From a virus, in the IMG/VR virus record IMGVR_UViG_3300020202_000078: a stretch of 64,000 nucleotides of DNA; one strand, written 5' to 3'. Both the position numbers and the translations under genes were made by a program. The notes under the pieces are model-generated. The model was not told where the DNA came from, searched no databases, and was given only the letters and a program-made list of their open reading frames with translations. Positions 2,104-57,972 of the stretch are shown here, piece by piece; the first letter of the stretch is position 1, and every line of letters begins with the position of its first letter.

Positions 2104-2713
2104 GGCTTCACCTGTTCAGGGGCCAGGGATGGGGGAGGGGCGGGGAGGGGTTGCCAGTGGGTGGGCTGAAGCTCGGCGTATTCCTGCATTCCCCAGTCGG
2201 CCACGGTGCCGTCAGTCCAGGCCCCGCGATAGTAGATCTCGTCGTTGTCGGCGTTGTATTCGCTGTCGAACTCCGCGTGCCAGCGACCCACGGTCTGAAC
2301 GAAGCCGTGTCCCTGGATCTGCTCGGCAAGCAGGACAGACGTCCCATCCTTCGGTGCCGTCTCAATCGGTTGCCATCCAGGGACCAGTGTCGAGGCCTTG
2401 GCCTCGCACGCCGCATCGGCGGTTGATGACGGACCCGGGAGGCGTTCAGAATACTTGTTGAGTACGGCGTCCGCTAGGTGTTGTTGCAATACGGGTCTGG
2501 ACCAGACGTCCATGTTGTTCCATGCTTCGCAGGCATCGTATATTACTTCTGACACTTCCTCCCTATCCAGTCCTTGAAGGCGGGAGAGGGCGGAGAGGCG
2601 CTCAATCTCGTCAATCGCTTCCGCCAGCAGCTTGTCGGTTTCGTCGCTGCTACGGTTCCACCCGAACGTGCCCATGTGTTCGCGCAACCGTCCAACCAGA
2701 TCAGAGGCGGTCA
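2100..2713 (-). CDS. DUF551-domain protein
   Basis: IETAPKDGT ... THWQPLPAPP motifs; start ATG at 2713 (MTASD). Confidence 0.6.
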
Positions 2714-2939
2714 TGGGCGGGGGCTCCTGGCTCGGTGAGGGTCGCGTAAACATCGGGATGGACATACAGCTTGCCTTGAGCGTGGTAGGCTCCAGGCTGC
2801 CGGCCGCGCACGACGCGCTGCGGATGGCCTAGTCGCTCACGGCGCTTTGCTCGGCTCGGCGAGCGGCAGGCGGACCAGTCCTCGTAGGCGACGGTGGCCT
2901 GAGCGGAGACGACGACCGGCATACCGGCGAGGTTGCTGA

Positions 2940-10017: not shown

Positions 10018-10212
10018 CTACGCCACCGCCATTTCAGAGACGGGAGCAGCGAGGGCGCGGGCTTCCCGCCAAGCGTTCCGGTATTGGTTGTCTGGAGCGT
10101 CCCAATCACCACTCAGGCGGCGGCGAATGGTGACCTCGTGATTGTGGCGGGCGACCTCGGCGAACAGCTCGCGGTGAGCCCAGGCGAAGGCGACGTTTTC
10201 AGCGGGGGTCAT
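10018..10212 (-). CDS. Hypothetical protein
   Basis: ORF. Confidence 0.4.
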   Translation of the reverse strand: MTPAENVAFAWAHRELFAEVARHNHEVTIRRRLSGDWDAPDNQYRNAWREARALAAPVSEMAVA

Positions 10213-10477
10213 GCTGAATGTCCTTTTCCAGGTGACGGCGGGTGAGGAAGCGGACGACCTTGCCGTCTTGCTCTGCGCACATGCGAATGGAGGCGGCGAC
10301 AGCGAGAAGCCCGAAGGTGGCGCGCAGCTCGAAGGCGGCCAGCTCTGCGTCCTCGGCTAGGTTGCCCAGGCGCGCTGTTGAAGGCCCGGACCGCATGGCG
10401 GCGACCTGCTCGGCGAGGGCCATGAGCTGGCGTTCGGCGCTCTCCAGGTGGAGTTCCAGCGCGGTCATGCGCGGCAC
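10199..10477 (-). CDS. Hypothetical protein
   Basis: ORF. Confidence 0.45.
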   Translation of the reverse strand: MPRMTALELHLESAERQLMALAEQVAAMRSGPSTARLGNLAEDAELAAFELRATFGLLAVAASIRMCAEQDGKVVRFLTRRHLEKDIQHDPR

Positions 10478-10788
10478 CCTTGATGAATGGCAGCGGGTCC
10501 AGCGACGGCGCGCGTGGCCCGGCGAACGCGGGCGATGGCGTCACGAACCCGCTGGCGGGTGGTGGCGGGCTTGATCGACATGGACAGGGGCCACCGATCC
10601 GCTTGCGCGCGACGGTGCGCATCGAGGCAGATGCGGACGCCCGCTAGCGCCTGCCGGTACTCGACGCCAGCCGGGCCAAGCATCCGAAGCGTGGAGCCGA
10701 TGAAGCGGTGACCGGCCTCGGTGTGCGGGATGATGGTGACCCCGCTGAGCGTGCGCTGCGGGGCGGGGGTGTCGGTGTCGAAGGGCAT
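10465..10788 (-). CDS. First gene of the early-left operon, hypothetical
   Basis: Immediately downstream of the OL operators. Confidence 0.5.
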   Translation of the reverse strand: MPFDTDTPAPQRTLSGVTIIPHTEAGHRFIGSTLRMLGPAGVEYRQALAGVRICLDAHRRAQADRWPLSMSIKPATTRQRVRDAIARVRRATRAVAGPAAIHQGCRA

Positions 10789-10813
10789 CGGTCTCTCCGG
10801 GGTATGGAGAGAC

Positions 10814-10855
10814 TATGCAAAACGCATATTACAGCGTCAAGTGCAAAATGCATAT
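10814..10855. promoter_or_regulatory. OL-like operator pair (TATGCAAAACGCATA palindrome and TGCAAAATGCATAT)
   Basis: Same motif recurs twice at 12336-12378 next to cI/cro. Confidence 0.65.
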
Positions 10856-10895
10856 TTCGTCATGATAGGGGTCGGACAGCGATTGGGAGGTAGGG

Positions 10896-11621
10896 TTGAT
10901 GATCTGGGCTTTGGTCGCCGCCGAGGTTGTTTGCGGATCACCAGCGGACATTCCGCCACTCCCGCAAACCCACACCGACTTGGTCGTGGAGCGAAACTAC
11001 AAGGCCGGGGAGGCCGTGACGGCGGTCGTTGGCCAAACGGTGGTGCGTGCCAAGAGCTTGTACGTCACTACCTCATACAGTTGGAGCTGGGTGACGGACC
11101 GCGATGTCACGATTACGTCCCAAAAGTTCACGCTCTTCCTGCCGGCCGGCAGCAAACTCAAGAGCATGGATCGCCGCCGGAGCGCGAGCGGTGCGGTTGT
11201 CGAAATCGCTGCAGCGCGGCAGTACAGCGACAGAACAATAGCGGCCCTTCAGCTCGACGGCGCCGGCTGTGTGGCGGATCATTACGCGTTCACTCTGCGC
11301 AATGGCGCCTGGCGCGAACACAAAAATCCGACACTGTTCACGCCGGAGAAGCCGAAGCTGACGCGGCAGCTGGTGGCGACGAAAGCGTCAGTCCCTGGGA
11401 CGTTGAACTACGAGATCATCTACGTAGGCCAAGATGGGCCGTCTATCCGGTTTGAGTATCGGGAATACACAGCTGACGACCTCGCTAGGCCGGCATTCTC
11501 GCAAACCTTGGCCTATCCGAAAGGTGCCCAGCGATTCCGTTTTCGCGACGTTGCCTTTCAAGTTCTCAGTCTGAAAGATGACGAGATAACAGTTCGGATC
11601 ACGCCGTCAGAAGGTGATTAG
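10896..11621 (+). CDS. Secreted or lipoprotein-like moron of unknown function between OL and cI (candidate superinfection exclusion or lysogenic conversion gene)
   Basis: N-terminal signal-like MMIWALVAAEVVCGS; position equivalent to rexAB/sieB. Confidence 0.55.
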   Translation: MMIWALVAAEVVCGSPADIPPLPQTHTDLVVERNYKAGEAVTAVVGQTVVRAKSLYVTTSYSWSWVTDRDVTITSQKFTLFLPAGSKLKSMDRRRSASGAVVEIAAARQYSDRTIAALQLDGAGCVADHYAFTLRNGAWREHKNPTLFTPEKPKLTRQLVATKASVPGTLNYEIIYVGQDGPSIRFEYREYTADDLARPAFSQTLAYPKGAQRFRFRDVAFQVLSLKDDEITVRITPSEGD

Positions 11622-12311
11622 CGGACGCTGTTGAATAGGTCGCACTGTGTAAGACGAGACCACCACACCGATGATTTCCGGGCCGTCATCCGCGTCTCGA
11701 ACGCTATCGATCCGAATGGGTTCTTGGAACGCCGGGTCGCTGGACCTTGGCCACAGGGCGACGCCCCGCTTTTCCTTGACCACTTCCTTGAGGGTTGTCT
11801 CCACAAGCCCTCCGCGACGGCGGCGCACCACAACGTGGTCACCCTCGCGCACGCCGATTTCTGCAGCTGGGCACACCACCACCATCGTCCCGTCGGGATA
11901 ATGCTGGTCCATGGAAGGTCCACGCACCCGCAAGGCGAACAACTGGGCGCCCTCAAAGCCCGCTAGATGGATCGGGATGACTTCCGGGTCGTCGGGCTCG
12001 TCGAAGACTTCAGCGAACACGCCAGCCTGTATCACGCCGATCACGGGCACCATTCGCGTGACCGCACGCATCCCGACTGGCGGAGACGGGGGCGGCATCT
12101 CGTCCAGGTCGCCGCGTCCGTAAAGGAGCCACTCGGGGGAGACGCGGAAGAACTTGCCGTAGCGCTCGGCCCGGCCAGCCGGGATCCCCCGCAACTTCCC
12201 CTCATGCTGGCTGTAAGTCGGGTAGGGGACGCCCATCGCCTCGGCCGCTGCCTTAGCGCTAGCGTAGCCTGCGCGCTCTCGCGCCAGCCGCAGCCGATCC
12301 CCCGGTTCCAT
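11607..12311 (-). CDS. cI: cI/LexA-like repressor (XRE HTH plus S24 peptidase domain)
   Basis: HTH LARERAGYASAKAAAEAMGV; C-terminal S24 region with GPSMDQHYPDGTMVVV. Confidence 0.8.
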   Translation of the reverse strand: MEPGDRLRLARERAGYASAKAAAEAMGVPYPTYSQHEGKLRGIPAGRAERYGKFFRVSPEWLLYGRGDLDEMPPPSPPVGMRAVTRMVPVIGVIQAGVFAEVFDEPDDPEVIPIHLAGFEGAQLFALRVRGPSMDQHYPDGTMVVVCPAAEIGVREGDHVVVRRRRGGLVETTLKEVVKEKRGVALWPRSSDPAFQEPIRIDSVRDADDGPEIIGVVVSSYTVRPIQQRPLITF

Positions 12312-12335
12312 GGCATCACGCCTTAGATCATCGGA

Positions 12336-12378
12336 ATATGCAAAAGGCAGTTGCGAAGCGGGTCTGCAAAATGCATAT
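12336..12378. promoter_or_regulatory. OR-like operator pair (ATATGCAAAAGGCAG; TGCAAAATGCATAT) between cI and cro
   Basis: Motif shared with OL. Confidence 0.65.
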
Positions 12379-12386
12379 TCACCGTC

Positions 12387-12617
12387 ATGCGCACCCATCA
12401 GGACATCATCCGGGACGCCGGGCCGCAGAAAATCCATGAGGCGGTCGGGTTTACGGGCCAGCTGAACACCGTCTTGTCGTGGCGGCAGCGAAACAGCATC
12501 CCGCGCGAGCACTGGGCGGCCCTGGCCGACGCGAAGATCGCGAGCCTCAAGGAGTTGGCGCTGGCTGCGCCGCCCCGGAAGCGGCGCTCCGCGTCACCGT
12601 CGCAGGTGGCCGCCTGA
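12387..12617 (+). CDS. cro: Cro-like small HTH regulator
   Basis: Divergent from cI; P22 Cro-like topology (..LSWRQRNSIP..). Confidence 0.55.
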   Translation: MRTHQDIIRDAGPQKIHEAVGFTGQLNTVLSWRQRNSIPREHWAALADAKIASLKELALAAPPRKRRSASPSQVAA

Positions 12618-12726
12618 TGCCCCTCGCTCCACACACCTCGCCTCGCGCTGTCCATGCCCAATTTGTGGCGCAGCCAAGCCGGGCAGTCACGTTCCATCGC
12701 CCGCCAAAATTGAACGGTGAAGCACA

Positions 12727-13197
12727 ATGACCAAGGTCCGCGCTCCCTCAACCTTCGAAGACGCCATCGACCGGATCGTTGGGCGCATCACCATTGCTAA
12801 GGCGGCCGAGGTCGTCGGCAAAGGCGAACGGGTGATCCGGTACTGGTCGGACCCTGACGCCAATCGGTCGCCGTCTATCGAAGAAGCGGCGCTGCTGGAT
12901 GCGGCCTATCTGGAGGCCGGAGGCGGCGAACCGCCGATCTTGGCAGTCTATCAACTCCTCCTCGACCGCAGGGTAACCCCACCGGCCGATAGCGCGGAAC
13001 TCGCCAAGGTCAGTGGGGTGCTTGCTAAGGAGGTGGGGGAGGGGCTGGCCGCCTTGTTCAAGGCCTCTCAGCCCGGATCAACGCAGGCTGATCGGATGAT
13101 CGCTGAGCGGGAGCTGACAGACGTCGGGGAGGCTCTGAACTCCAGCCTTCGCGTCCTTGGCTCCCCTGCGAACGTGACGCCGCTGAGGTCCGCATGA
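12727..13197 (+). CDS. Putative CII-like transcriptional regulator
   Basis: HTH-like ITIAKAAEVVGKGERVIRYWS; position after cro. Confidence 0.4.
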   Translation: MTKVRAPSTFEDAIDRIVGRITIAKAAEVVGKGERVIRYWSDPDANRSPSIEEAALLDAAYLEAGGGEPPILAVYQLLLDRRVTPPADSAELAKVSGVLAKEVGEGLAALFKASQPGSTQADRMIAERELTDVGEALNSSLRVLGSPANVTPLRSA

Positions 13198-13313
13198 CCG
13201 CACTCGCCATCATCGGCCTGATCCTCGTGGCCCCCGCCGTCCTGTCTCTGGCCCTGGCGGCCTTGGTCGCCCTTATGGGTGCGGCGGCCAAGATGCAGGG
13301 GCATGGCCCATGA
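13194..13313 (+). CDS. Small hydrophobic peptide (single TM)
   Basis: ATGA overlaps on both sides; MTALAIIGLILVAPAVLSLALAALVAL. Confidence 0.35.
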   Translation: MTALAIIGLILVAPAVLSLALAALVALMGAAAKMQGHGP

Positions 13314-13483
13314 TAGCAGTCCGCTGGGAATGCCCGTCAGCGTACGCCGAGATTCTCGCGCTTCAAAGCCGGCGGGACGAGCTGGCTCGTAAGCTGGTCG
13401 GCCACCCGAAGAACCGCGCCACCTTGGGCAAGCTTACCCATGAGCAATTGCGGGTCCAAGTCGGCAAAGGCCTGCCGACATGA
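13310..13483 (+). CDS. Small hypothetical protein
   Basis: Coupled 57-aa ORF. Confidence 0.35.
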   Translation: MIAVRWECPSAYAEILALQSRRDELARKLVGHPKNRATLGKLTHEQLRVQVGKGLPT

Positions 13484-13848
13484 AGCGCCCCGAGGAAGCC
13501 CTACAGCGCCAAGTCGCTTCCTACCTGAACGCGGTGCCCGGCCTGCTGTGGTGGGCGACTGCCAACCAGCGCGGCACCCGCTCACGCGCGGAAATGGGTG
13601 TTCTGAAAGCCATGGGCGTCCGCCCCGGCGTCCCCGATATCTGCCTAATCCTACCCGGCGGCAAGATCGGTCTTCTGGAGCTGAAGGCCGCCAAGGGCCG
13701 GCTGTCCGAGCATCAACGCGGATTCATCGACGCTGCCATGTCCAAGGGTGCCCTTGTCGGCGTCTGCTACTCGCTGACGGACGTCGCCGATCACCTGAAC
13801 ACTTGGCTTGGCCCCTACGGCTACCGTGTCCCGAGGTTGGCGGCATGA
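13480..13848 (+). CDS. VRR-NUC domain nuclease
   Basis: VASYL...PDICLILPGGKIGLLELKAAKGRLSEHQ..F. Confidence 0.75.
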   Translation: MKRPEEALQRQVASYLNAVPGLLWWATANQRGTRSRAEMGVLKAMGVRPGVPDICLILPGGKIGLLELKAAKGRLSEHQRGFIDAAMSKGALVGVCYSLTDVADHLNTWLGPYGYRVPRLAA

Positions 13849-14234
13849 AGCGCGAAACCGTCCCCATCGGCCGCAAGCAACCCGAATGGATCGGCGCGAC
13901 GCCTGACTCCGCTATCCCCGACCGGGTGCGCCTCCGCGTGTTCCAGCGCTACGGCGGGCGCTGCTACCTGTCCAAGGCCGTGATCCGCCCCGGCGACGCC
14001 TGGGACATCGAGCACATCATCCCCCTGTCTATTGATGCGACCGGCAACCGGGAGGGGAACCTCGCCCCGGCCTTGAAGGCGCCTCACGTCGAGAAGACCG
14101 CGCAGGACCGCCGCGACAAGGCCAAGGCCGACCGGCTAGCCAAGAAGCACTTCGGCATCGGCCAGCCCAAAACCGGCGGGTTCACGGGCTGGCGCAAGTT
14201 CGACGGAACCGTTGTCAGGAAGGTTGTCCGTTGA
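13845..14234 (+). CDS. HNH endonuclease
   Basis: RVFQRYGGRCYLS...EHIIPLS...GNL. Confidence 0.75.
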   Translation: MKRETVPIGRKQPEWIGATPDSAIPDRVRLRVFQRYGGRCYLSKAVIRPGDAWDIEHIIPLSIDATGNREGNLAPALKAPHVEKTAQDRRDKAKADRLAKKHFGIGQPKTGGFTGWRKFDGTVVRKVVR

Positions 14235-14524
14235 CCAACATCAACCCCCCCCTTCACCCCGACCGCCTGGCTGACTCCTGGCCCAAGGTAGAGGCTGACA
14301 TAGCCCGGCAGGAGCGGCGCAGGAACTCGCCTGAGCCGCCGCCAGAGCCTACCAAGGCCGACGACCACCCCGGCTGGACCGATGATCGCCTAGCCACCCT
14401 GGAGCGGATGTATCTCCAGGGTAAGACCTTCGAGCAGATGGGTCGCAAGCTCGGCATTTCCAAGGTCGCTGCCTATCGAAAGATCAGACGTCTTGGTTGG
14501 GAAGGTCGGAGGGTAGCGCAGTGA
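14231..14524 (+). CDS. GcrA-like cell-cycle regulator N-terminal domain protein
   Basis: WTDDRLATLERMYLQGKTFEQMGRKLGISKVAAYRKIRRLG resembles the GcrA DNA-binding domain. Confidence 0.6.
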   Translation: MTNINPPLHPDRLADSWPKVEADIARQERRRNSPEPPPEPTKADDHPGWTDDRLATLERMYLQGKTFEQMGRKLGISKVAAYRKIRRLGWEGRRVAQ

Positions 14525-14949
14525 TCCTCCGCTCACTCTGGAAAGGCGAAATCAACAATCCCGAGTATGCACTGGCGCCGTCGGATGCGGACGTGCTGCG
14601 TGCTGTCATCTCGGAAATCTGCGTTCGGCACCAGGTTTCCGAGACCGAGCTTGCCAGTCTAAGCCGCACCCAGCGCGTCGCCCAGGCGCGTCAGGAGGCA
14701 TATTTCCGGCTCTATGAGATCCGGTATGCCGGCGGCCGGCGCCGCTTCTCCACGATCAAGATTGGCGCCCACTTCGGTCGGGATCACTCGACGATCCTGC
14801 ACGGCATCGAGGCATTCAAGCGTCGGCAGGGTGCCCCGGCAAAGCCTAAGCGGGTCAAGCCGCAACAGGCGTCCCGGCCCGCGCCCCTTGAGGTGCTGCT
14901 GGCCAAGCGCTTCCGGCGGATCGTTGCCGAGAAGGGCTGTGTGGCATGA
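14521..14949 (+). CDS. DnaA domain-IV-like HTH protein
   Basis: RVAQARQEAYFRLYEIRYAGGRRRFSTIKIGAHFGRDHSTILHG; GTG start overlaps the upstream stop. Confidence 0.55.
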   Translation: MILRSLWKGEINNPEYALAPSDADVLRAVISEICVRHQVSETELASLSRTQRVAQARQEAYFRLYEIRYAGGRRRFSTIKIGAHFGRDHSTILHGIEAFKRRQGAPAKPKRVKPQQASRPAPLEVLLAKRFRRIVAEKGCVA

Positions 14950-15731
14950 GACAGTCACTCTCCAAGAAGCTCAGGTTCGAAGTGTTCAAGCGCGACCGCT
15001 TCACCTGCCAATATTGCGGGGCAAAAGCGCCGGACGCGGTGCTTAATTGCGACCACGTTCACCCCGTCGCGGAAGGCGGGACGAACGATATCCTGAACCT
15101 TGTAACCGCCTGCGAGGCCTGCAATGGCGGCAAGGGCGCGCGGCTTCTCGATGACCGTTCGGCGGTGGACCGCCAGCGGGCGCAGATCGAGGAACTTCAG
15201 CAGCGCCGCGAGCAGCTTGAGATGATGCTGGAGTGGCGGGACGCGGAGGAAGTTTCCCGCGTCGATACCGTCGAGGAGATTTCCAAGCGTATCCAAGATC
15301 GAGGCGGCTTTCCGCCGAACGAGAACGGCAGGAACAATATCAGGCGCTGGCTAAGAACCTATTCTCTCGCTGAGCTGCTGACTTCTCTGGACGAGTGCTT
15401 TGATCGCTACATGCTTTGGGACGGTGATGAGCCGGATGAAACGGGGTGGAACTTAGCGTTCAAGAAGATCCCCGTTCAGGCGGGGTATAATCGGCGCGGA
15501 GCCGAAAAGCCCTACCTCGCCAAGCTGGCCTACATCCAAGGCATCCTGCGGAACCGCTGCGGTGACAAGCGGGAGAAATTCTTGGTCGAGCTTGAGGACA
15601 TCCATCTCTGGGGAATCCCCCTGGAAGTGATGGAGGAGTCTGCCAAGCGCGTCACCGACTTCGAGGATTACTGGAACGAAATGGTCGGCCTCGCCGAGGC
15701 GATCCGGGAGGCGGACAGTGGCGCGGATTAG
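14946..15731 (+). CDS. HNH endonuclease with C-terminal extension
   Basis: RFEVFKRDRFTCQYCG...DHVHPVAEGG...NLVTACEACN. Confidence 0.75.
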   Translation: MRQSLSKKLRFEVFKRDRFTCQYCGAKAPDAVLNCDHVHPVAEGGTNDILNLVTACEACNGGKGARLLDDRSAVDRQRAQIEELQQRREQLEMMLEWRDAEEVSRVDTVEEISKRIQDRGGFPPNENGRNNIRRWLRTYSLAELLTSLDECFDRYMLWDGDEPDETGWNLAFKKIPVQAGYNRRGAEKPYLAKLAYIQGILRNRCGDKREKFLVELEDIHLWGIPLEVMEESAKRVTDFEDYWNEMVGLAEAIREADSGAD

Positions 15732-16719
15732 ATCAATTCACCCCGGCATCTACACTGACGAGGCGTGGGCCAGTGTGTCTATCGCTGCACGATGGCTGGC
15801 CAAGGGCATCTGCACTGAAGCGGATGACAACGGCGTATTCGAGTGGAAGCCGCTTCAGCTCAAGATGCGCATCTTCCCGGCCGATTCCGTGGATGTGGTG
15901 ACCCTGCTCGCCGAGCTGGAATCGGCCGGCATCGTCATGCGCTTCACGGCCGATGGAAAGCCGTTGGGCGCGGTGCGGAATTTCTGCAAGTACCAGCGCC
16001 CCCGCAAGCCCAAGGCTTGGTTTCCGATCACCGATGAAGCGCGGACATTTGTCGCTCTCGGCTCTGAAGGTCCGGAGCCGGCCGATGATGAAGTGACGCC
16101 AGTTCCGAAAAAGTCCGAACTCGCCCCGGTTAAAGCCGATGAAGTTCCGCACGAGTCCGAAAAGCCTCCGCAGATGGAGGATGGAGTAGGAGGAGGTAGA
16201 GGGAAGGAAGAGGAGGAAGCTAACGCTTCCTTGTCGCCGAGGGCGACGAAACGCCCGTATCCGGAGGCGTTTGAGATCGCTTGGAAGGCCTATCCGCACA
16301 CGAAGGGTCGATCCTCAAAGCCGGAGACCCTCAAGCTGTGGAGAAAACTTCCCCCCGACGAGCAACAAGCCCTGGCAGGGGCCGCGAGATCGTTCGCGGG
16401 GAAGGTCGGAACCGTTTGCGGCGACAAGGGCGCCCCGGACATGGCCGAGTGGCTCCGGAAGGGCAAACACGCCGACTGGATCGATTTTGGGAGCAACGTC
16501 GCGCCAATCCGCCCCTTTGGTGGACCGCCCGAGGTCCGACAGGCAATCGCCACGGCAAAGGGGGAAGGCTTCGCCGCCGCCTATGTGGACCCTTGCGGAT
16601 GGGACGCTGAGAACCGCTGTCTGATCGCCCGAACGGAGACCGCCGCCAAGGCGCTCAAGTCCGAAGCGGGGGCCGTTCTGGCGGCTCGACAAGTCACCGT
16701 TGCGAAGGCCGCAGCATGA
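15718..16719 (+). CDS. Putative replication initiation / replisome organizer protein
   Basis: Winged-helix-like N-terminus and acidic linker; lies in the replication module after the DnaA-like gene. Confidence 0.4.
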   Translation: MARIRSIHPGIYTDEAWASVSIAARWLAKGICTEADDNGVFEWKPLQLKMRIFPADSVDVVTLLAELESAGIVMRFTADGKPLGAVRNFCKYQRPRKPKAWFPITDEARTFVALGSEGPEPADDEVTPVPKKSELAPVKADEVPHESEKPPQMEDGVGGGRGKEEEEANASLSPRATKRPYPEAFEIAWKAYPHTKGRSSKPETLKLWRKLPPDEQQALAGAARSFAGKVGTVCGDKGAPDMAEWLRKGKHADWIDFGSNVAPIRPFGGPPEVRQAIATAKGEGFAAAYVDPCGWDAENRCLIARTETAAKALKSEAGAVLAARQVTVAKAAA

Positions 16720-16973
16720 CCCGCGAAGAGCGCATCGCCGCCATCAAATCCAGCTCCAATGACTTGGTGATCTACCTCGATGCGATGGCCCGGCAGCTCC
16801 TAGCCCTGGCCCATCCCCAGGCAGACGAGGCGGAGGTTCTGGACCGCCTCGACCGAGCCTTCCGCAATGAGCCCCTAATCCTCCCCCGCTTGGCCAGTCT
16901 AGCTGAACTCGCCCCTCGTACAGCCAAGTCCGGAAGGGACTATGGCGCAGCCGTGAAGGAAGTAGCCGTATGA
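16716..16973 (+). CDS. Hypothetical protein
   Basis: Coupled ORF. Confidence 0.45.
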   Translation: MTREERIAAIKSSSNDLVIYLDAMARQLLALAHPQADEAEVLDRLDRAFRNEPLILPRLASLAELAPRTAKSGRDYGAAVKEVAV

Positions 16974-17233
16974 CCGAGGAAGAAGACCTGTGCCGCACCA
17001 TCACCGAGTTTCGCCGCGTGCTGCCTGGGTGGTGGTTCACGGTCGGCCACTGCAAGCTGACGTCGGACGCATCGTGCGGCCCTGACGCGGGCAATCCGCT
17101 GTGTCGTGTGCCTCGCTTCGACGAGGGCTTTCATGCCGATCTCGAACCGCCTGCCACTTTGGCTGATGCCATGCGTGTCGTGATGGGCGACGCCCTTGAG
17201 GCCAAGGCAGCCGTGAAGGAGATCGCAGCGTGA
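16970..17233 (+). CDS. Hypothetical protein (paralog of 57973-58269; LPGWWF..C..SC.AS.GPD)
   Basis: Shared motif with the right-arm gene. Confidence 0.5.
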   Translation: MTEEEDLCRTITEFRRVLPGWWFTVGHCKLTSDASCGPDAGNPLCRVPRFDEGFHADLEPPATLADAMRVVMGDALEAKAAVKEIAA

Positions 17234-17490
17234 AATTTTCAATCGTGGCCTTTGTGATCGCGCTGCCGCTGGCGGCCTGTGGCTCTGAAGCGTCCCCTTC
17301 CGATGCCTCGGATGGACCAGACCCGAACGTGATCCATGTTGGCGGTTACTGGCATGTGGTGAAAACCTGCGACGCGGGACGCGCGGTCTACATCACGCAC
17401 AGCGACTACAGCGGCGACGGCGGCAACATTTTTGTCGTCCCTGAAGCGCCCGAATGTGCTCCTCGTGACTTCCTGAGGGAGGCCCCATGA
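17230..17490 (+). CDS. Lipoprotein
   Basis: Signal peptide plus lipobox LAAC. Confidence 0.55.
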   Translation: MKFSIVAFVIALPLAACGSEASPSDASDGPDPNVIHVGGYWHVVKTCDAGRAVYITHSDYSGDGGNIFVVPEAPECAPRDFLREAP

Positions 17491-17678
17491 CCTCCCCATC
17501 CCCATCCAAGACAATACCAGAACAGCGGGAGGAAGGCCTCCGCGACCGTTTCGCCATGGCAGCCCTGACCGGGATACTCGCGTGCTTTCGAGACTATCGA
17601 GGAAGCTCAACGACCGAGGGCCGGGCGGTGCTCGCCTACCAGTACGCCGACGCCATGATGAAGGCGAGGGCCAACTGA
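17487..17678 (+). CDS. Hypothetical protein
   Basis: ORF. Confidence 0.4.
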   Translation: MTSPSPSKTIPEQREEGLRDRFAMAALTGILACFRDYRGSSTTEGRAVLAYQYADAMMKARAN

Positions 17679-17887
17679 TGTTTCCAATCGGATACGCAGA
17701 AATCGCGTTCGCGAATGCGATCTCGAGGGTGATGAGGCCGCTCTACGAGCCGGAGAGCCCCGATGCCGCTAAGCAGCGCACCGCGGCTGCTACGCGCGCC
17801 GCTAAGGCGCTAGTGGAAATTCAAGCCATGATGAAGGCGCGCCAAGCCCCGCCCGCACAAATCGACATGGAGCCGAGCAATGACTGA
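17678..17887 (+). CDS. Hypothetical protein
   Basis: ATGA coupling. Confidence 0.4.
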   Translation: MFPIGYAEIAFANAISRVMRPLYEPESPDAAKQRTAAATRAAKALVEIQAMMKARQAPPAQIDMEPSND

Positions 17888-18113
17888 CTGGCAGGATATA
17901 GCGAGCGCACCTCGGGATGGGAGCGACTTCCACGCGGTGGACGGCAGGACCGGCCATCAGGAGATCGTCTTCTTCGACGACACCAGGAAGTCCGACGTCA
18001 CACAGGAATGGGTTTGGCACACGAAGGACGGTCCCGCCTACCACGAACGGTTCTTTACGCATTGGCGGCCCCTCCCTTCACCCCCCGGTCAAACCGACAG
18101 GGAAGCGAAATGA
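17880..18113 (+). CDS. DUF551-domain protein
   Basis: IASAPRDGSDF ... THWRPLPSPP. Confidence 0.6.
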   Translation: MTDWQDIASAPRDGSDFHAVDGRTGHQEIVFFDDTRKSDVTQEWVWHTKDGPAYHERFFTHWRPLPSPPGQTDREAK

Positions 18114-18271
18114 ACCGCTCCGCCTTCTACGGCTGGACGTGCTGCGCACTCAGCCAAGTGTCCCTGCTGATCCTCGCCAATGGCCACGCCATCGCCACGA
18201 CGCTCTCCGCCCTGTTGCTGGCTATGTCGGCAGTATCCGCCGCCTTAGCCCTGGTGAAGAAGTCGGCATGA
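18110..18271 (+). CDS. Small membrane protein (2 TM)
   Basis: Hydrophobic; ATGA coupling. Confidence 0.4.
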   Translation: MNRSAFYGWTCCALSQVSLLILANGHAIATTLSALLLAMSAVSAALALVKKSA

Positions 18272-18435
18272 CCCGCGAACTCCTCTGCTTCCCCCACGAC
18301 TACCGCCTGACCATGATCACCCATGAGTACGAGGACTGGTCCTGTCGTCTCTGTGGGCAACCTCAATCCTGGCCCGTGTGGATGGGGAAGAGGCCGCCGC
18401 AGCAGCCGCCTAGCCAACCTGTGAGGCCCGAATGA
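18268..18435 (+). CDS. Small Cys-containing protein
   Basis: Coupled ORF. Confidence 0.35.
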   Translation: MTRELLCFPHDYRLTMITHEYEDWSCRLCGQPQSWPVWMGKRPPQQPPSQPVRPE

Positions 18436-18863
18436 CCCGCATTGCCATCCTCGCCGCTGCCCTCGCCCTGCTGGCCACCCCGGCCCTGGCGGACCCCTGC
18501 AAGGCAATCCCCGACCGTGGCCCCGTTCCAACCTGGATTGAGCCCGGCGCTGTCTTCACCGGCCAGGTCCGCCATATCCTCGACGGGGACGGCCTATGCG
18601 TGGGCAACAGCCCCGATCCCAAGACATGGGTGGAGGTTCGCCTGGAGGACTTCTACGCCCCCGAGCTGAGGGAGCCTGGAGGCCAAGCGGCTAAGGCGAC
18701 CCTCTCCCGCATCACCGCCGGCCGAACCGTCCGCTGCGTCGTCACTCGTCGAGGAAGGGTCCGCTCCTATGACCGCGTCGTCGCAACCTGCACGTTGAAC
18801 GGCCGGAGCCTGCGGGACCACATGACAGCCGCAGGTATCCGTGAAGGGGGTAGGGGCCAATGA
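18432..18863 (+). CDS. Secreted thermonuclease (SNase/micrococcal nuclease-like)
   Basis: Signal peptide; HILDGDGLCV and EVRLEDFYAPELRE SNase motifs. Confidence 0.65.
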   Translation: MTRIAILAAALALLATPALADPCKAIPDRGPVPTWIEPGAVFTGQVRHILDGDGLCVGNSPDPKTWVEVRLEDFYAPELREPGGQAAKATLSRITAGRTVRCVVTRRGRVRSYDRVVATCTLNGRSLRDHMTAAGIREGGRGQ

Positions 18864-19468
18864 GTCGCAAAGCCAAGAAGAAGTCGCCCCAGCAGATCGC
18901 GGCCGGCAGCAAACGCATCCGAAAGTCGGAGGCCCAGCTTGCCCGAGAAGCGGAGGAGCAGCGCGCCCGCGACTTCGAAGCGCTAGGCCTGCCTGGGCAC
19001 ATCGCAAACCTGCCCACTCAGGCCGATGTCCTGGTCGAGCGCGCCACCCGCCAGTCCGCCGACAACCGGGGAAACGTCGACCGGGCGCGTCGTCAGGCTG
19101 GCTTGGACTGGCTCTGGAACAAGAAGCGGTTAGAGCCGCACCAGATGCAAGCGGGCCTCAAGTATGGCGACGACTACCGCGCCGCTACGGATGCCAGGGT
19201 TCGGTCCTGTATGGCCAGCGCGACAGGTGGCGATCTGATGTTCGCACAGGAGCACCGCGCCGCTGCGCGCCAACGGCTATTGAAGGCGCAAAAGGAGGGG
19301 CTGGCTAATCACCCGTCCATGACCAACCTTTGCAACCGGGTTGCCGGCGAGGGTGAGCGGGTTACAGAAATCGCCAATGGAAACGACCCGGAAGCCAAGA
19401 AATTAGAGGCCGTGTTGTGCGTTTCCCTGGACCTGCTCGCCAAGCACTATGGTATCATTACTGCATGA
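18860..19468 (+). CDS. Hypothetical protein
   Basis: 202-aa ORF. Confidence 0.45.
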   Translation: MSRKAKKKSPQQIAAGSKRIRKSEAQLAREAEEQRARDFEALGLPGHIANLPTQADVLVERATRQSADNRGNVDRARRQAGLDWLWNKKRLEPHQMQAGLKYGDDYRAATDARVRSCMASATGGDLMFAQEHRAAARQRLLKAQKEGLANHPSMTNLCNRVAGEGERVTEIANGNDPEAKKLEAVLCVSLDLLAKHYGIITA

Positions 19469-20103
19469 TCCGTTCTGTTTACATCATCGGCGTCGGAACC
19501 GCTCCGGTTAAGGTGGGTGTCGCCGACGACGTCATCGCTAGGCTGGCGACCCTACAGATCGGCAACGCCGATGCCTTGGTCCTGCACCATGCGGTAGCCC
19601 TGCCCTGGGGTGTGGCACAACAGGTTGAGGCCGCTGCGCACAGGGATCTGGCGCCCTACCATCGGCGCGGAGAGTGGTTCAATGTTACGTCCGTCGAGGC
19701 AAGGCGGGTTGTGGAGGCATTGGCTGGCCCCATGATCGCCAAGTGGCGCGCGGGCTCCTACAACAGCGGGGACACGCTTCTGCGTCTGGTGACAGATCAC
19801 CAGGTCAGCCCGTGGGCATTTGAGGCGCTGCAGCACTATCGCGCCCGATGCGCGGCCAAGGACACCCAGGCGGTTCAAGCGATGAACCGAGCCATTCTCG
19901 ACGCTGAGGGCGCCGCCTGCTTGACCGCCTTCACCATGTTCGTCTCCAAGGGCGGTAGCATCGCGGGCATCCTCAGCCGCGCGCCGGAGGCAGCGCACAA
20001 GGCGCTTGCAGCGCTCGCCCGTGGCACGAATGCCCTTTGTGCCCATTGGCGGGCACAGCAGGACGCATCCCTGCTTGACGAAATCCAGAGAAACGTGGCA
20101 TGA
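19465..20103 (+). CDS. T5orf172/GIY-YIG-like domain protein
   Basis: SVYIIGVGTAPVKVGVADDVIARL...HR.L..Y..RGEWF. Confidence 0.55.
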   Translation: MIRSVYIIGVGTAPVKVGVADDVIARLATLQIGNADALVLHHAVALPWGVAQQVEAAAHRDLAPYHRRGEWFNVTSVEARRVVEALAGPMIAKWRAGSYNSGDTLLRLVTDHQVSPWAFEALQHYRARCAAKDTQAVQAMNRAILDAEGAACLTAFTMFVSKGGSIAGILSRAPEAAHKALAALARGTNALCAHWRAQQDASLLDEIQRNVA

Positions 20104-20170
20104 AATTACTCAGGGTGGTGCTTCGCGTCCACCCGACCCCCAACATTCGGTATCGGGCGCGGTGCGCCTG

Positions 20171-20425
20171 CTACTCTCCCCGGATCATCGCCGCCAGACT
20201 GAGCGCATCCCGCCGAACAGACGGCAGCGCCAAGTCTATGTTCCCCTGACTGAGGGCCAGGGCAAGTGAGACCCGCTCCACGGCGAGGGCATGGAGATTG
20301 CGGAGCTTCGAGGCGCCGGCTTCTACGTCCTGGTAGGCTCGATGGCTTAGGCCGATGAGGTCGGCCATCTCCGCCTGTGTAATGCCTGCCCGGTCTCTTA
20401 GGGCCTTGAGGTCGCCGACATTCAT
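20171..20425 (-). CDS. XRE-family HTH transcriptional regulator
   Basis: LRDRAGITQAEMADLIGLSHRAYQDVEAG; RBS GGAG. Confidence 0.6.
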   Translation of the reverse strand: MNVGDLKALRDRAGITQAEMADLIGLSHRAYQDVEAGASKLRNLHALAVERVSLALALSQGNIDLALPSVRRDALSLAAMIRGE

Positions 20426-20429
20426 TGAT

Positions 20430-20960
20430 TTTTCTCCGGTTACCTGATACCCCTCCGGAGAGCCTAGGCGGGACGGGAATCCCACCTAGGCCCCCCGGTT
20501 ACTTCCGGAAGCTGATTTGGACTTGTAGGACCTTCAGCTTCCAGAACCGGAGTAGGAGTTTGAAGCGAAGCTTCATTTCTTCCTCCGAGTTGCCGGCTGG
20601 GGGTCAGCCGGTAAGAATGTTGTACGCGGAAACTGCGCATAGGTCAACAGCCTAGCGCAGTTTCTTCGTATTTTTCTCGCGGTAAGCCGCAGAAACCACG
20701 CATCTCCCCGTATAGGCAGACAGGTTAAGGCGCCGACCTTGTGAAAGGCGCTCCAAGTTTCAGCGGCGGCGTGGAAACGTAGACACGCAGGTCCGGGTAC
20801 ACTGATCGGCAACCACGCAGGGAAACCTGCTTAGGGCTCGTTCAGAGCCGGTTTAACGCCCGGCCCGCTGAAAGCCATTCAGTTCGCGCCCACGGCCTTC
20901 CTCCCTCGGGGCCTGCGCGAGGCCCATCGGTAGAGCTTCTGTTCCCGATGGGCCAACCTA
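20430..20960. other. Structured ~500-bp noncoding region with reduced GC and multiple hairpins (candidate ori, ncRNA or late-operon control region)
   Basis: No convincing ORF; perfect stems such as cccatcgg...ccgatggg, aaactgcgcatagg...cctagcgcagttt, gccggctg..cagccggt. Confidence 0.35.
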
Positions 20961-20972
20961 CAGGAGACAGCG

Positions 20973-21173
20973 ATGCACCCCGACAGCCAAGCGGCCATCA
21001 TTGCAAACGACCTCGATAGCCTGGTGCACCGCATCGAGGCTCTTCCGGCGCATCCGGAGAACACGGCTGCGCTTAACGCCGTTCAAGCGGCCCGGCAGGC
21101 GATCAACAAGGCTAGAGCCGACCTGCACCAGAGCGCCATGCGGGAGCGTTTCGCCGCTTCGGACGCCGCCTAA
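20973..21173 (+). CDS. Hypothetical protein
   Basis: ORF. Confidence 0.4.
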   Translation: MHPDSQAAIIANDLDSLVHRIEALPAHPENTAALNAVQAARQAINKARADLHQSAMRERFAASDAA

Positions 21174-21240
21174 CCCCCTTCGCCCCGTCATCGCCACATC
21201 CAAGCATAGCGACTTAGACGATAGAACGCGGGCGAACCCT

Positions 21241-21435
21241 ATGAACCCCACCCCCACCGAATGGCAAGAAACCGGCCGGGACCGCACGGTGACCAGAGGG
21301 GTCTTCGTCAGGCGGCAGGTCCGCCAGGTCGAGGAGCGCCGCTACGTCTTTCGGCCAGTATCGCGGGGTTGGACCCCCGCCAACTGGCGGGAGCAAACGC
21401 GGTGGCGAGAGTGCGGTCCAAGCCGGCGCCCATAG
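21241..21435 (+). CDS. Hypothetical protein
   Basis: ORF. Confidence 0.35.
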   Translation: MNPTPTEWQETGRDRTVTRGVFVRRQVRQVEERRYVFRPVSRGWTPANWREQTRWRECGPSRRP

Positions 21436-21680
21436 CGTGAGCGAACCCTAAGAGGCCGTATGACGAAGCCACGCCTTCTCCGGTCTTCATCCGCCACGGT
21501 CCTGCACCGGCTGCTGAAGTCGAAGCGACCGCCTTGTCCGCCGAACACTGAACCGAACGCTGCGATACACTACCAGTCGCACCGAAACGAGATCGCCACA
21601 CCGACCGCGTTGCCGCTCGATCTCACCGAGCCGACGTATTGGGCCGTCGCCTAGGCGAACGCTTCAGAGGACACCGAACG

Positions 21681-21956
21681 ATGGATGACAGCGAAATCCG
21701 CCGCGATGCCCTCCGCATGGCAATGGACACCCGCCCACCGAACGAGCGAGACGTCGATACCGTCAAACGCGCTGAGGCCTTCTATCGGTTCATGCAGTCC
21801 CGGCCGCTTAACGGGAAGCCGGAAGGGTCACCGCCAGGAACGCGAGGCATCGTGCCGAGGCCCGAACGTCCGCCTACAGTGACAATCCGAGAGGGGTGGG
21901 CGAAGCCCATGCCGCCGCCTCCACCCCCGCCGCAGATGGGGCGCATTCCGCGTTAA
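21681..21956 (+). CDS. Hypothetical protein, Pro-rich C-terminus
   Basis: RBS AGAGGA. Confidence 0.4.
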   Translation: MDDSEIRRDALRMAMDTRPPNERDVDTVKRAEAFYRFMQSRPLNGKPEGSPPGTRGIVPRPERPPTVTIREGWAKPMPPPPPPPQMGRIPR

Positions 21957-21959
21957 GCG

Positions 21960-22241
21960 ATGACGCTGGCTGAGATCATCACCACTCCCGAGACCGACCG
22001 CTACACCATCACCGGCCCTCACCCTGACGGCAAACTCTGGACGGTGATAGACCGCAACACCGGGGAAGAGGTGGGCGGCTACAACGCTTACTCGTTGGCA
22101 AAGGATCTATGCCAACGGCTGAGCGACCAAACGCCATCGCCCTTTGAGATCGCGGCGCTCCCTCTGCCTCAGGCCGACGAGGATATCTACCGCTCATACC
22201 TTGAGACACGCATGGCTGTTGCCCGCGCCTTCTCCGCCTAG
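21960..22241 (+). CDS. Hypothetical protein
   Basis: ORF. Confidence 0.45.
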   Translation: MTLAEIITTPETDRYTITGPHPDGKLWTVIDRNTGEEVGGYNAYSLAKDLCQRLSDQTPSPFEIAALPLPQADEDIYRSYLETRMAVARAFSA

Positions 22242-22253
22242 CCCAACCACATC

Positions 22254-22631
22254 ATGGGTAAGGCCAGCCGCCTCTCAAGCCCGACCGGTAGGCTGATCCT
22301 GGCCTCACACCGCCTGTCGCACTCGCCCACCCAAGATCCCGAGCCAACCACCCCTAACCAGTCTCCGTGGAAGGCGTGGTACAACACAGCCCAATGGCGC
22401 AGGCTCCGCCTAGCCACCTTTGAGCGCGACCGCTTCACCTGCCAGATGTGCCGGAAGCTCGAAGGTGACACCTCTCAGCTCGTCTGTGACCACAAGCAGC
22501 CCCACAGGGGCAATGCCACCAAGTTCTGGAATCCCGACAACCTCCAGACCCTCTGTAAATCCCCCTGTCATGACCAGCACAAGCAAGCCCAGGAGCAAGA
22601 CAGCCGGTGCCACCAGGGGACATGGGACTAA
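22254..22631 (+). CDS. HNH endonuclease (terminase-associated)
   Basis: FERDRFTCQMC...CDHKQPH...NLQTLCKSPCH; directly upstream of terS. Confidence 0.7.
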   Translation: MGKASRLSSPTGRLILASHRLSHSPTQDPEPTTPNQSPWKAWYNTAQWRRLRLATFERDRFTCQMCRKLEGDTSQLVCDHKQPHRGNATKFWNPDNLQTLCKSPCHDQHKQAQEQDSRCHQGTWD

Positions 22632-22755
22632 CCCCCGGGGGGGAGGGTCCAAAATCCTATCAAGTCGGTGGGAGAAGACCGGCGGCCAATCACGGAGAGA
22701 TTATTTCCGGCCCGGGGGATTTGAGTCCCGCGAACCTCATTGCGAACGGAGACCG

Positions 22756-23322
22756 ATGACCGAAACCAGGAAGCCGATCGACTGGGCAGACATCGAGCGC
22801 GACTACAGCACGAGCCCCATGTCCGTAAGGGAAATTGCCCGATGGCATGGCGTGACGGAGGCCGCGATTCGCAAGCACGCCAAGAAGGCCAAATGGGTGA
22901 GGCCCGAGACGGCGCCCGGTTCGCAGCAGGAGCCGCGCACTCCACCCCCAGTCAAGGTCTACGTTGGGACGGTTCTGACCCCGGAGAACACGACCCCTGA
23001 GGCCATTGTCGACAGGGGTCGCGCGCTTGCCATGCGGATGCTCGATGAGTTGGACGCTTCCACGAGCATGATGGGCGAGTTGGAGACGCTGATCACCGCT
23101 GGCATCGAGGGCGACAACGACAAGCAGCGCGAGGCGGCCCTTGCGGCGGTCTCGTTGAAGACCCGGGCGGAGGTTCTGAAGTCGCTGGCAACCGCGACGA
23201 AGACCTTCGCTGAGAGCGGGGCTCCGGCGGGGATCAAGAAGCAGCGCCAGGAGGCCGGGGAGCGGGTCGCGAGGGGAGGGGGCAAGTTCGCCGCGCCGCC
23301 GCCGCCGAGGATCGTTCAATAG
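22756..23322 (+). CDS. terS: Terminase small subunit
   Basis: HTH MSVREIARWHGVTEAAIRKHAKK; sits before terL. Confidence 0.7.
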   Translation: MTETRKPIDWADIERDYSTSPMSVREIARWHGVTEAAIRKHAKKAKWVRPETAPGSQQEPRTPPPVKVYVGTVLTPENTTPEAIVDRGRALAMRMLDELDASTSMMGELETLITAGIEGDNDKQREAALAAVSLKTRAEVLKSLATATKTFAESGAPAGIKKQRQEAGERVARGGGKFAAPPPPRIVQ

Positions 23323-56470: not shown

Positions 56471-56577
56471 ATCTCCTGCGGCGACGGGGCGGGGGTTGCA
56501 AAATCGCCGTGACGTAGATATAAACGCGACGTTGATTTTGAGCAATACATGCCGGAAGAAAAAACGACGCCACGTAG

Positions 56578-56832: not shown

Positions 56833-56921
56833 ACCCGGGCAGAGCCTTCGAGGGCGTCGTGTCTTAGGTACCGGGCCACACGGCTGAGGTAAACTCGGTC
56901 AAAATCGGTAAACTCGATCAA

Positions 56922-56953: not shown

Positions 56954-56959
56954 TTTGGG

Positions 56960-57971: not shown

Positions 57972-57972
57972 G

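Follow-up and report, generated by a model that had tools for sequence, protein, structure and literature searches.

A temperate phage or prophage with a stand-alone DnaA domain IV protein and a composite GcrA-like protein encoded in its early operon

The gene pair and its operon

The IMG/VR virus record IMGVR_UViG_3300020202_000078, analysed here as a stretch of 64,000 nucleotides (hereafter, the window), is a temperate phage or prophage with a G+C content of 64%. Two small adjacent genes lie in its rightward early operon. The second encodes a protein of 142 amino acids (aa), referred to as P0001, which is a DnaA domain IV on its own; the first encodes a 97-aa protein that consists of two parts, one of which is a helix-turn-helix (HTH) similar to the DNA-binding domain (DBD) of GcrA. 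An earlier note, made from the sequence alone, had described the pair as phage copies of GcrA and DnaA domains within a replication module. Both open reading frames (ORFs) were found where it placed them, the peptides it quoted are present in both, and the order of the surrounding genes (CI-type repressor, VRR-NUC, HNH, the pair, HNH and replication initiator) agrees with a location in an early/replication module. The locus is described below; loci are designated by L numbers, and the relatives whose gene orders are listed were looked up by exact protein.

11607-12512, minus strand: CI-type repressor (HTH and Peptidase_S24), transcribed away from the rightward early operon to which the pair belongs
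13480-13848, plus strand: VRR-NUC nuclease, at the same position in relatives L125 and L126
13845-14234, plus strand: HNH endonuclease of 129 aa (phrog_333, E = 1.8e-11)
14231-14524, plus strand: 97-aa two-part protein, with a TTG start overlapping the stop of the upstream HNH gene (TTGA)
14521-14949, plus strand: 142-aa stand-alone DnaA domain IV protein (P0001), with a GTG start
14946-15731, plus strand: HNH endonuclease of 261 aa (Pfam HNH, E = 2.7e-13; phrog_16986, E = 4.5e-68)
15718-16719, plus strand: replication-initiator-type protein (phrog_1408, E = 6.2e-28)

The same 97- and 142-aa genes were called independently by the Joint Genome Institute (JGI) on an identical metagenome contig (L001, sample 3300021061), which corresponds to window positions 10082-22795; in this call, the two genes overlap by 4 bases (GTGA). 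Each start is preceded by a Shine-Dalgarno-like sequence, GGAAGG at a distance of 8 nt for the TTG and GGAGGG at 7 nt for the GTG, and an alternative 150-aa form of the second ORF is possible from the TTG at 14497. The stop of the 142-aa gene overlaps the ATG of the next gene. Scans for sigma-70 promoters and terminators returned nothing beyond shuffled expectation.

Domain structure of the two proteins

P0001 matched the Pfam profile Bac_DnaA_C (PF08299; hereafter, DnaA_C) with 41.7 bits (E = 1.2e-10), the cut-off being 31.5. Of the full-length DnaA profile TIGR00362, only positions 348-418 out of 437 were matched, with 32.6 bits for a cut-off of 343.9. Domains I-III, i.e. the DnaB/DiaA-binding domain, the linker and the AAA+ ATPase, are absent, and P0001 therefore lacks ATPase, oligomerisation and DnaB-loading functions. 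A profile built from the nearest relatives of P0001 matched the structure of Escherichia coli DnaA (1j1v, E = 1e-12), as well as those of M. tuberculosis, A. aeolicus and B. subtilis DnaA (E from 1e-12 to 7.5e-10, E. coli included). An AlphaFold model computed from 65 relatives had an overall predicted local distance difference test score (pLDDT) of 88. Its residues 22-102 superposed, using Foldseek, on 3pvp with a root-mean-square deviation (rmsd) of 1.1 Å and on 1j1v with one of 1.8 Å. All of the eight best fold matches in the PDB were DnaA, with 3pvp, 1j1v, 1l8q and 8btg at a probability of 1.00. P0001 is thus a stand-alone DnaA domain IV, organised as follows:

14533-14547, plus strand: N-terminal motif S-L-W-K-G, in a tail predicted to be disordered (pLDDT 50-64 for residues 1-20)
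14584-14826, plus strand: DnaA domain IV fold, residues 22-102 (AlphaFold2 pLDDT 96-98), with the signature G-R-D-H-S-T-I-L-H-G
14887-14934, plus strand: predicted amphipathic C-terminal helix, residues 123-138, common to the closest relative, P0003

In E. coli DnaA, P423, D433, H434 and H439 are reported to contact bases (Fujikawa et al. 2003). The six DnaA-box contact residues considered here (R399, P423, D433, H434, T435 and H439) are kept in P0001, with P423 differing: R399, D433, H434 and H439 correspond to R49, D88, H89 and H94, respectively, T435 is conservatively replaced with S90, and P423 with I79. Moreover, R442 and K443 correspond to E97 and A98. The roles of R399 and T435 in DNA reading, as well as the backbone contacts made by R442 and K443, have been summarised previously (PMC9638019). 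With domain IV of E. coli and M. tuberculosis DnaA (1j1v and 3pvp), P0001 has in common the fold, the R399 equivalent and the signature R-D-H-T/S-T-V/I-L-H; it is distinguished from these proteins by the absence of domains I-III, I in place of P423, E in place of R442, and an extra loop insertion.

Within the family (n = 65, only about 30% overall identity), D433 and H434 were found in 65 out of 65 members. T435 was T in 56 and S in 8, R399 was R in 52 and K in 9, P423 was P in 56, and H439 was H in 45. This constancy across phages with different replication proteins points to a common target of host type rather than to phage-specific iterons.

Outside the fold, the consensus [VL]-L-S-L-W-[KRH]-G was observed near the N-terminus in 50 of the 65 members. 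In P0001, a 6-residue insertion precedes the HTH, and a basic linker of lower confidence, without predicted secondary structure, precedes the C-terminal helix. We also observed an Ala-Ala C-terminus in 32 of the 65 family members. P0001 ends with -CVA (14941-14949) and the window initiator with -KAAA (16708-16719); in related loci, -AA ends are also found in many neighbouring early proteins. Such ends may correspond to a ClpXP-type C-terminal degron, or may be a by-product of ATGA/GTGA start-stop overlaps in GC-rich operons.

The 97-aa protein comprises two segments:

14237-14314, plus strand: N-terminal module, residues 3-28, with the motif P..LA..WP.VE and with homologs in L122 and L123, where they are ORFs of 56 aa
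14372-14512, plus strand: GcrA-DBD-like three-helix HTH, residues 48-94, C-terminal here and not N-terminal as in GcrA

The Pfam GcrA profile (PF07750) was matched with E = 4.1e-5, only over positions 3-49 out of 155, and the NCBIfam GcrA equivalog (NF050816) with 27.2 bits versus a cut-off of 280. The hidden Markov model (HMM) searches suggested in the earlier note thus gave a DnaA_C match above the cut-off, whereas the Pfam GcrA match remained below it (24.4 versus 26.9 bits). A phmmer search against the PDB aligned residues 48-94 with residues 2-49 of Caulobacter crescentus GcrA (7ye1/5yiu; E = 2e-5, about 40% identity), and residues 45-90 matched an unrelated two-HTH protein, 2lvs, equally well. 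The PHROG family phrog_323 ('transcriptional regulator, D5-like') gave a better match than Pfam GcrA. In a single-sequence AlphaFold2 model, three helices were predicted at residues 51-62, 67-74 and 78-87 (pLDDT 86-91), and the best PDB fold match was the GcrA DBD 5yiu, with a target-normalised TM score of 0.82 and an rmsd of 0.7 Å. Taken together, the HMM, phmmer and fold data indicate that the similarities of the pair to DnaA and GcrA are real and not due to chance. Both identifications therefore hold, the GcrA likeness being confined to a 45-residue HTH.

This HTH retains W3, T4, D5, R7, L11, G18, Q23, L28, G29, K39, R42, L43 and G44 of C. crescentus GcrA. Unlike GcrA, the 97-aa protein carries a 47-residue N-terminal extension that is unrelated to GcrA, and the recognition residues differ. 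The GcrA target YGAKTCG and its two N6-methyl groups are read by R33, N34, I37, G38, H41 and R42 (PMC5887438), for which the equivalents are K78, V79, Y82, R83, R86 and R87. Only R42 is identical; R33, N34, I37, G38 and H41 are changed to K, V, Y, R and R, respectively. In addition, the protein ends 3 residues past the HTH, with neither a linker nor the domain that interacts with sigma-70 region 2 and carries a CCCH zinc site. In GcrA, normal function is abolished by filled methyl pockets (I37W, G38Y/W) or by loss of the sigma-70-interacting domain, without which open-complex formation is not promoted (PMC5887438).

With five of the six reading residues replaced and the sigma-70-interacting domain absent, the 97-aa protein cannot act as GcrA, and the proposal of the earlier note that it could redirect methylation-dependent transcription of the host is not supported on either ground. 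Judging from its residues, it very probably does not read methylated GANTC in the way GcrA does.

The N-terminal module was 54% and 52% identical to the 56-aa ORFs of L122 and L123, respectively (pairwise BLASTP, E = 8e-9 and 1e-8), a homology also supported by a local jackhmmer run and by alignment. In L122 and L123, which are the closest relatives, these ORFs overlap the start of the DnaA_C gene. The 97-aa gene of the window is this small module extended by an HTH. No match to the 97-aa protein was found in isolated phages by tblastn, and phmmer returned nothing significant in the N-terminal extensions of longer DnaA_C relatives. In some relatives (P0010, P0041 and P0099), an HTH is fused N-terminally to DnaA_C. 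A GcrA and DnaA_C gene fusion, i.e. a 'Rosetta stone', was considered and rejected, as these extensions are of the HTH_23/HTH_38 type by Pfam and not GcrA.

Relatives, genomic neighbours and host

The DnaA_C family of phages is large and already annotated, and the 142-aa gene is one more member of it. In an exhaustive HMMER search, E <= 1e-3 was reached by 1,066 representatives; the best 150 were 81-287 aa long, with no full-length DnaA among them. A profile search identified 1,571 clusters (counted at 90% identity) at E <= 1e-5, with lengths of 82-237 aa for the best 120. These clusters are automatically named 'chromosomal replication initiator protein' by their sources. Scanning IMG/VR with back-translated signature patterns yielded at least 119 loci; among the matches listed, the ORF with the signature was 75-290 aa long in 114 out of 117. 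By tblastn, 31-44% identity was found to pelagiphage and Synechococcus phage genes annotated as dnaA or DnaA-like, and the fold was matched by dozens of BFVD entries of 79-290 aa, named 'Chromosomal replication initiator, DnaA C-terminal'. Word-indexed homolog searches with the 97- and 142-aa proteins, used singly, returned only the queries themselves, and a scan of genome contigs with P0001 revealed no relative.

Genes with PF08299 only have been noted in HTVC010P-type pelagiphages, for which a role in phage replication was proposed (PMC8477408). Like P0001, the stand-alone PF08299 genes of pelagiphages and of the UniProt entries for uncultured Caudovirales phages encode domain IV only and lie in an early DNA-metabolism region. 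P0001 differs from stand-alone DnaA_C proteins of phages at large in belonging to a subfamily with the [VL]LSLW[KR]G motif, in its 6-residue insertion before the HTH and in its C-terminal helix. Our search of the open-access literature found no functional study of a phage protein consisting only of DnaA domain IV. The 'DnaA-like protein' of a Rickettsia plasmid was ruled out as a precedent, since it resembles DnaA domain I and not domain IV.

The following gene orders were observed in related loci:

L122 and L123: 56-aa ORF, DnaA_C, 222-247 aa protein
L124: GcrA family protein (228 aa), 63-aa ORF, DnaA_C, DUF1376, with MT-A70 further on
L124, 4348-5004: the DUF1376 protein, which follows the DnaA_C gene
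L125: VRR_NUC, N6_N4 methylase, 116-aa gene, 91-aa gene, DnaA_C, DUF1376
L126 and L127 (Pseudomonadota metagenome-assembled genome, MAG): VRR_NUC, GcrA family protein (223 aa, 4-base overlap), DnaA_C, 67-aa gene, DnaB
One JGI contig: 371-aa protein with faint GcrA/HTH matches, 84-aa LexA-type HTH protein, DnaA_C

The conserved order is VRR-NUC/HNH, small ORF, DnaA_C and initiator. Among 100 unique upstream neighbours of DnaA_C in viral contigs, we counted HNH (17), RusA (5), DNA methylases (5), YqaJ (3), SSB (2), VRR_NUC (2), GcrA (1) and GapR (1). The 95 unique downstream neighbours included DUF1376 (7), HTH_36 (5), RusA (5), GcrA (4), MT-A70 (3) and DnaD_N (2). In L122-L125, DnaA_C and the initiator are not separated by a counterpart of the second HNH gene of the window (14946-15731), which thus resembles an inserted free-standing endonuclease. 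Its first 270 bp show about 73% DNA identity to HNH genes of the Pseudomonas phage JBD44 type.

The last 68 residues of the window initiator (16516-16716) were 41% identical (E = 8e-12) to the C-terminus of the L124 DUF1376 protein (L124:4801-5004), and the N-terminal parts of the two proteins are unrelated. The C-terminal segment is a module common to initiators with different origin-binding heads.

The association between GcrA-like and DnaA_C genes was quantified using a local jackhmmer search seeded with three phage GcrA homologs. GcrA-like ORFs were found in 13 of the 128 loci with a DnaA_C gene, adjacent to it in 9, and in none of the 77 TerL-related prophage loci without a DnaA_C gene. 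Reciprocally, a same-strand DnaA_C ORF was present within about 2.5 kb in 11 of 119 further viral loci carrying the canonical R-N-A-V-I-G-K motif. The link thus recurs, but is facultative, with about 10% in either direction. It is also confounded by host range, because GcrA is described as conserved among Alphaproteobacteria (PMC3667746), and many of the control loci come from other classes. A paper on a phage GcrA/DnaA_C pair was not found in the open-access literature search.

L124, L126 and L029 encode full homologs of GcrA, which have a canonical DBD as well as a Cys-rich C-terminal region that aligns with the C-terminal half of the family; the Cys-rich region of the L124 and L126 proteins exhibits a C...C...C..H pattern. 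Unlike the window copy, L124, L126, L029 and L011 keep (S/T)RNAVIGK. In other viral contigs, DBD-only versions of GcrA, with 76-85 aa and a T-R-(N/S)-(A/S)-V-(I/L)-G-K recognition helix (T-R-N-A-V-I-G-K in L011 and L038), lie directly beside DnaA_C genes:

L011:995-1225, minus strand: DBD-only GcrA protein
L057:10173-10403, minus strand: DBD-only GcrA protein
L038:267-629, plus strand: DBD-only GcrA protein

Among these GcrA-type proteins, the window copy is the most degenerate, and the jackhmmer search from the three phage homologs did not pick it up. The canonical R-N-A-V-I-G-K motif was also observed in L244 (IMGVR_UViG_3300021061_000002, 66.9 kb), which originates from the same metagenome as the window.

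These data bear on the possibility that the pair hijacks the host cell cycle, the GcrA-like protein redirecting methylation-dependent transcription and the DnaA-like protein altering DnaA-dependent transcription or initiation. The recurrence of GcrA-family genes beside DnaA_C genes (13/128 and, reciprocally, 11/119 loci) and the full homologs with a canonical DBD in L124, L126 and L029 speak for it, as does the proposal that GcrA homologs of phiCbK-type phages (e.g. gp222) alter the replicative state of the host (PMC3556154). However, the window protein lacks the sigma-70-interacting domain and five of the six reading residues, and the association is facultative (about 10%) and confounded by host taxon. 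Such a role seems improbable to us: the degenerate state of the GcrA-like protein weakens it for the window, but it may apply to the relatives with full GcrA homologs.

The host is likely alphaproteobacterial, as suggested by a specific depletion of GANTC and by the taxonomy of the nearest TerL-bearing prophages. In the window, 66 GANTC sites were counted versus 211 expected from base composition (observed/expected ratio, O/E, 0.31) and 136 expected by a third-order Markov estimate (O/E 0.49). When the 16 XYNY'X' palindromes were ranked, GANTC was the most depleted according to the Markov estimate, whereas on base composition TANTA was more depleted still. Each of the four parts of the window showed the depletion of GANTC, which is compatible with a host that methylates (CcrM-type) or restricts this sequence. 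A similar scarcity of GANTC, which is methylated by CcrM, characterises Caulobacter genomes. Three GANTC sites lie at 22529-22866, inside coding sequence upstream of the terminase, and one of them fits the extended GcrA consensus.

The closest TerL-bearing genomic loci were a 4.4-kb contig binned as Sphingobacterium (74%), an unclassified Pseudomonadota MAG (72%) and Shinella (70%), followed by a Caulobacteraceae MAG (66%), Sphingobium (64%) and Arenibaculum/Methylobacterium/Mangrovicoccus (61-62%). Comparison of TerL with isolated phages was uninformative (<=60%; Burkholderia, Pseudomonas and Stx phages). TerL-related loci with DnaA_C genes were found in two Devosia genomes and one MAG. The Caulobacterales-type host put forward in the earlier note, partly from DUF551 genes, was thus supported at the level of Alphaproteobacteria and not at that of Caulobacterales, the best TerL matches being spread over several groups. 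The two DUF551-domain genes matched Pfam with E = 1.7e-6 and 3.7e-5, respectively, and tblastn with the longer protein gave no match in 50,697 isolated phage records. Other features of the window are as follows:

5-1516: integrase
Leftward strand: Erf and YqaJ recombination genes
2100-2765, minus strand: DUF551-domain gene
17880-18113, plus strand: DUF551-domain gene
23323-24993: terminase, about 8 kb downstream of the DnaA_C gene

Large rightward ORFs continue past the terminase to about 51 kb, the last one ending at 50990. Beyond it, a Band_7/SPFH gene (55405-56550, minus strand) was observed, as were numerous consecutive small ORFs in leftward orientation (57-63 kb); the region 55405-64000 may be the other phage arm, a second element or host DNA. 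A gene with a T5orf172/MUG113 domain follows the early region both in the window (19417-20103) and in L124 (8301-8351). Relatives L123 and L126 encode, shortly before the terminase genes, a NusG-like protein of 175-181 aa (L123:6043-6588 and L126:6777-7304), which is a candidate late-gene regulator of this phage group; for the equivalent region of the window, no NusG-like match is on record.

DNA targets and possible roles of the pair

Our preferred reading, to which we assign a probability of about 0.4, is that P0001 is an early, replication-linked DnaA-box binder that does not initiate replication. It is favoured by the near-invariance of the reading residues, the absence of those parts of DnaA that act in initiation, and the position of the gene before replication genes, as illustrated by DUF1376 downstream of DnaA_C in L124 and L125, and by the 67-aa gene followed by DnaB in L126. 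The pair belongs to the rightward early operon of a phage or prophage that is temperate and lambda-like and whose host is probably an alphaproteobacterium, and P0001 would be made early, alongside the phage replication proteins. It would bind DnaA-box-type sequences as a mimic of host DnaA without initiation, and the occupied sites would be chromosomal ones of the host, at oriC or at promoters regulated by DnaA, a few sites in the phage, or both. Such occupation could uncouple phage replication from the control exerted by host DnaA. The N-terminal motif and the C-terminal helix of P0001 may contact a partner, and the 97-aa protein would be an accessory DNA-binding protein in which a small module is fused to a GcrA/sigma-4-type HTH of altered specificity. 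The folds, the conservation of residues, the gene order and its recurrence are observed; binding to DNA and its target, competition with DnaA and any contact of one protein with the other are inferred from them. A precedent for a prophage protein interfering with host DnaA is YfdR, which is encoded by an E. coli cryptic prophage and interferes with DnaA-dependent initiation (PMC4776307). However, YfdR is an unrelated protein that binds DnaA domain I (Phe46) and does not mimic the DNA-binding domain (PMC4776307).

Several observations weigh against such a role. The window contains no perfect DnaA box, and matches with at most two mismatches (78 versus 65 ± 8 expected) are not enriched. In 121 related loci, near-consensus DnaA boxes numbered 118 versus 80 expected, but this excess is mainly due to one coding-sequence site in 12 closely related loci and to 4 near-identical loci. 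One apparent box peak, located inside the DnaA_C genes, was rejected as an artefact of coding, because TTATCCAGA corresponds to the residues L-S-Y-P-E-I, which recur in 12 related loci; a second one was discarded, as it stems from the 4 near-identical loci. Since the excess is largely explained by kinship, no phage target is defined. The competition with DnaA at the phage origin or host oriC that the earlier note put forward may occur, given the conserved reading residues, but finds no backing in the distribution of boxes. P0001 itself departs from the family at two contact positions, with I for P423 and E for R442. Moreover, 4-base gene overlaps are the rule across the early operon, so that the overlap between the 97- and 142-aa genes is no evidence of a specific partnership. 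Finally, identity as a DnaA domain alone need not mean a role in replication, because GafY, a stand-alone DnaA-like HTH protein, activates transcription.

The search for targets also drew attention to the initiator gene. In its region 16080-16350, a lower-GC, purine-rich stretch contains two GTTCCG..AGTCCGAA repeats, 42 bp apart (16101-16161), as well as GATGAAGT repeats, and two DnaA-box-like sites come after it, at 16290-16298 (plus strand, 2 mismatches) and 16337-16345 (minus strand, 1 mismatch). This region may be an origin of the lambda style, situated within the initiator gene, or only a low-complexity coding linker; its layout hints at an origin, yet does not exceed chance.

If it were an origin, P0001 might bind it, perhaps near 16080-16350, and recruit or position the downstream initiator; the two proteins would then amount to an initiator in two pieces, of which the DNA-reading one derives from DnaA, an arrangement that we regard as unlikely. 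It would agree with the low-GC stretch, the repeats and the two sites, with the consistent proximity of DnaA_C genes to initiator-type genes, and with downstream initiators that have a common C-terminal domain and differing N-terminal domains. It is difficult to reconcile with the near-invariance of the recognition residues among phages that should have different origins, and with the many family members that precede non-initiator genes. Furthermore, DnaA-box-like sites occur in the window at chance frequency, and the repeats lie in a coding low-complexity linker and may reflect only that.

The main rival to a non-initiating DnaA-box binder is a role as a transcriptional activator comparable to GafY, in which P0001, perhaps with the upstream HTH protein, would activate phage promoters through contact with RNA polymerase. 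The DnaA-like domain of GafY/GafA activates promoters of gene transfer agents via sigma-70 or the omega subunit of RNA polymerase (PMC9638019, PMC11150451). GafA consists of an N-terminal DnaA-like HTH and a C-terminal sigma-like HTH, and in Hyphomicrobiales and Caulobacter the two are encoded separately, by a small DnaA-like gene and, after it, gafZ (PMC9638019); GafY binds promoters as well as sigma-70 domains 3-4 (PMC11150451). The N-terminal part of GafA and GafY are thus, like P0001, small stand-alone DnaA-domain-IV-like binders in a phage-derived alphaproteobacterial element, accompanied by a sigma-like HTH protein. A similar combination of folds is present in the window, the GcrA DBD being sigma-4-like (PMC5887438), the host is probably alphaproteobacterial, and the HTH_23/HTH_38-type fusions in P0010, P0041 and P0099 likewise join a second HTH to DnaA_C.

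The gene order is nevertheless reversed compared with gafYZ, and no DUF6456/GafZ-type gene was recorded among the called genes of 10082-22795 or among the Pfam matches of the window. Unlike GafY/GafA, P0001 is encoded in the replication module, beside replication genes and about 8 kb upstream of the terminase, and not at the early/late junction, which in L123 and L126 is held by the NusG-like gene. P0001 also exceeds the Pfam DnaA_C cut-off, whereas GafA resembles DnaA only at the HHpred level (PMC9638019), so that, by the published description, P0001 is much closer to true DnaA than GafA is. On balance, a function of this kind appears doubtful.

A broader proposal concerns the whole subfamily. 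Proteins of the [VL]LSLW[KR]G-DnaA_C type might be a dedicated class of phage effectors that read host DnaA boxes while their N-terminal peptide docks on a conserved host replication protein, and that form, together with neighbouring GcrA-type genes, a cassette reprogramming the DnaA-to-GcrA circuit in Alphaproteobacteria. The LSLW-type N-terminal peptide may resemble QL[SD]LF, the sliding-clamp-binding motif at the N-terminus of Hda. Of all the interpretations given here, this is the most novel, and we consider it very unlikely.

For the window, in which nothing is exceptional within the DnaA_C family, the main outcome is a correction of the GcrA reading. What this analysis adds is the composite nature of the 'GcrA-like' gene, the N-terminal motif of a DnaA_C subfamily, the conserved gene order and a measured, modest co-occurrence with GcrA-type genes. 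With more than 1,500 clusters, stand-alone DnaA DNA-binding domains are among the commoner unexplained early genes of phages, and the label 'chromosomal replication initiator' cannot be right for them, which amounts to a systematic mis-annotation. The locus offers three handles on their function, namely the N-terminal peptide motif, the small upstream partner module and the recurrent, facultative GcrA-type neighbourhood. Deciding between a block of host DnaA, the marking of an origin and GafY-type activation would explain a widespread strategy of phages.

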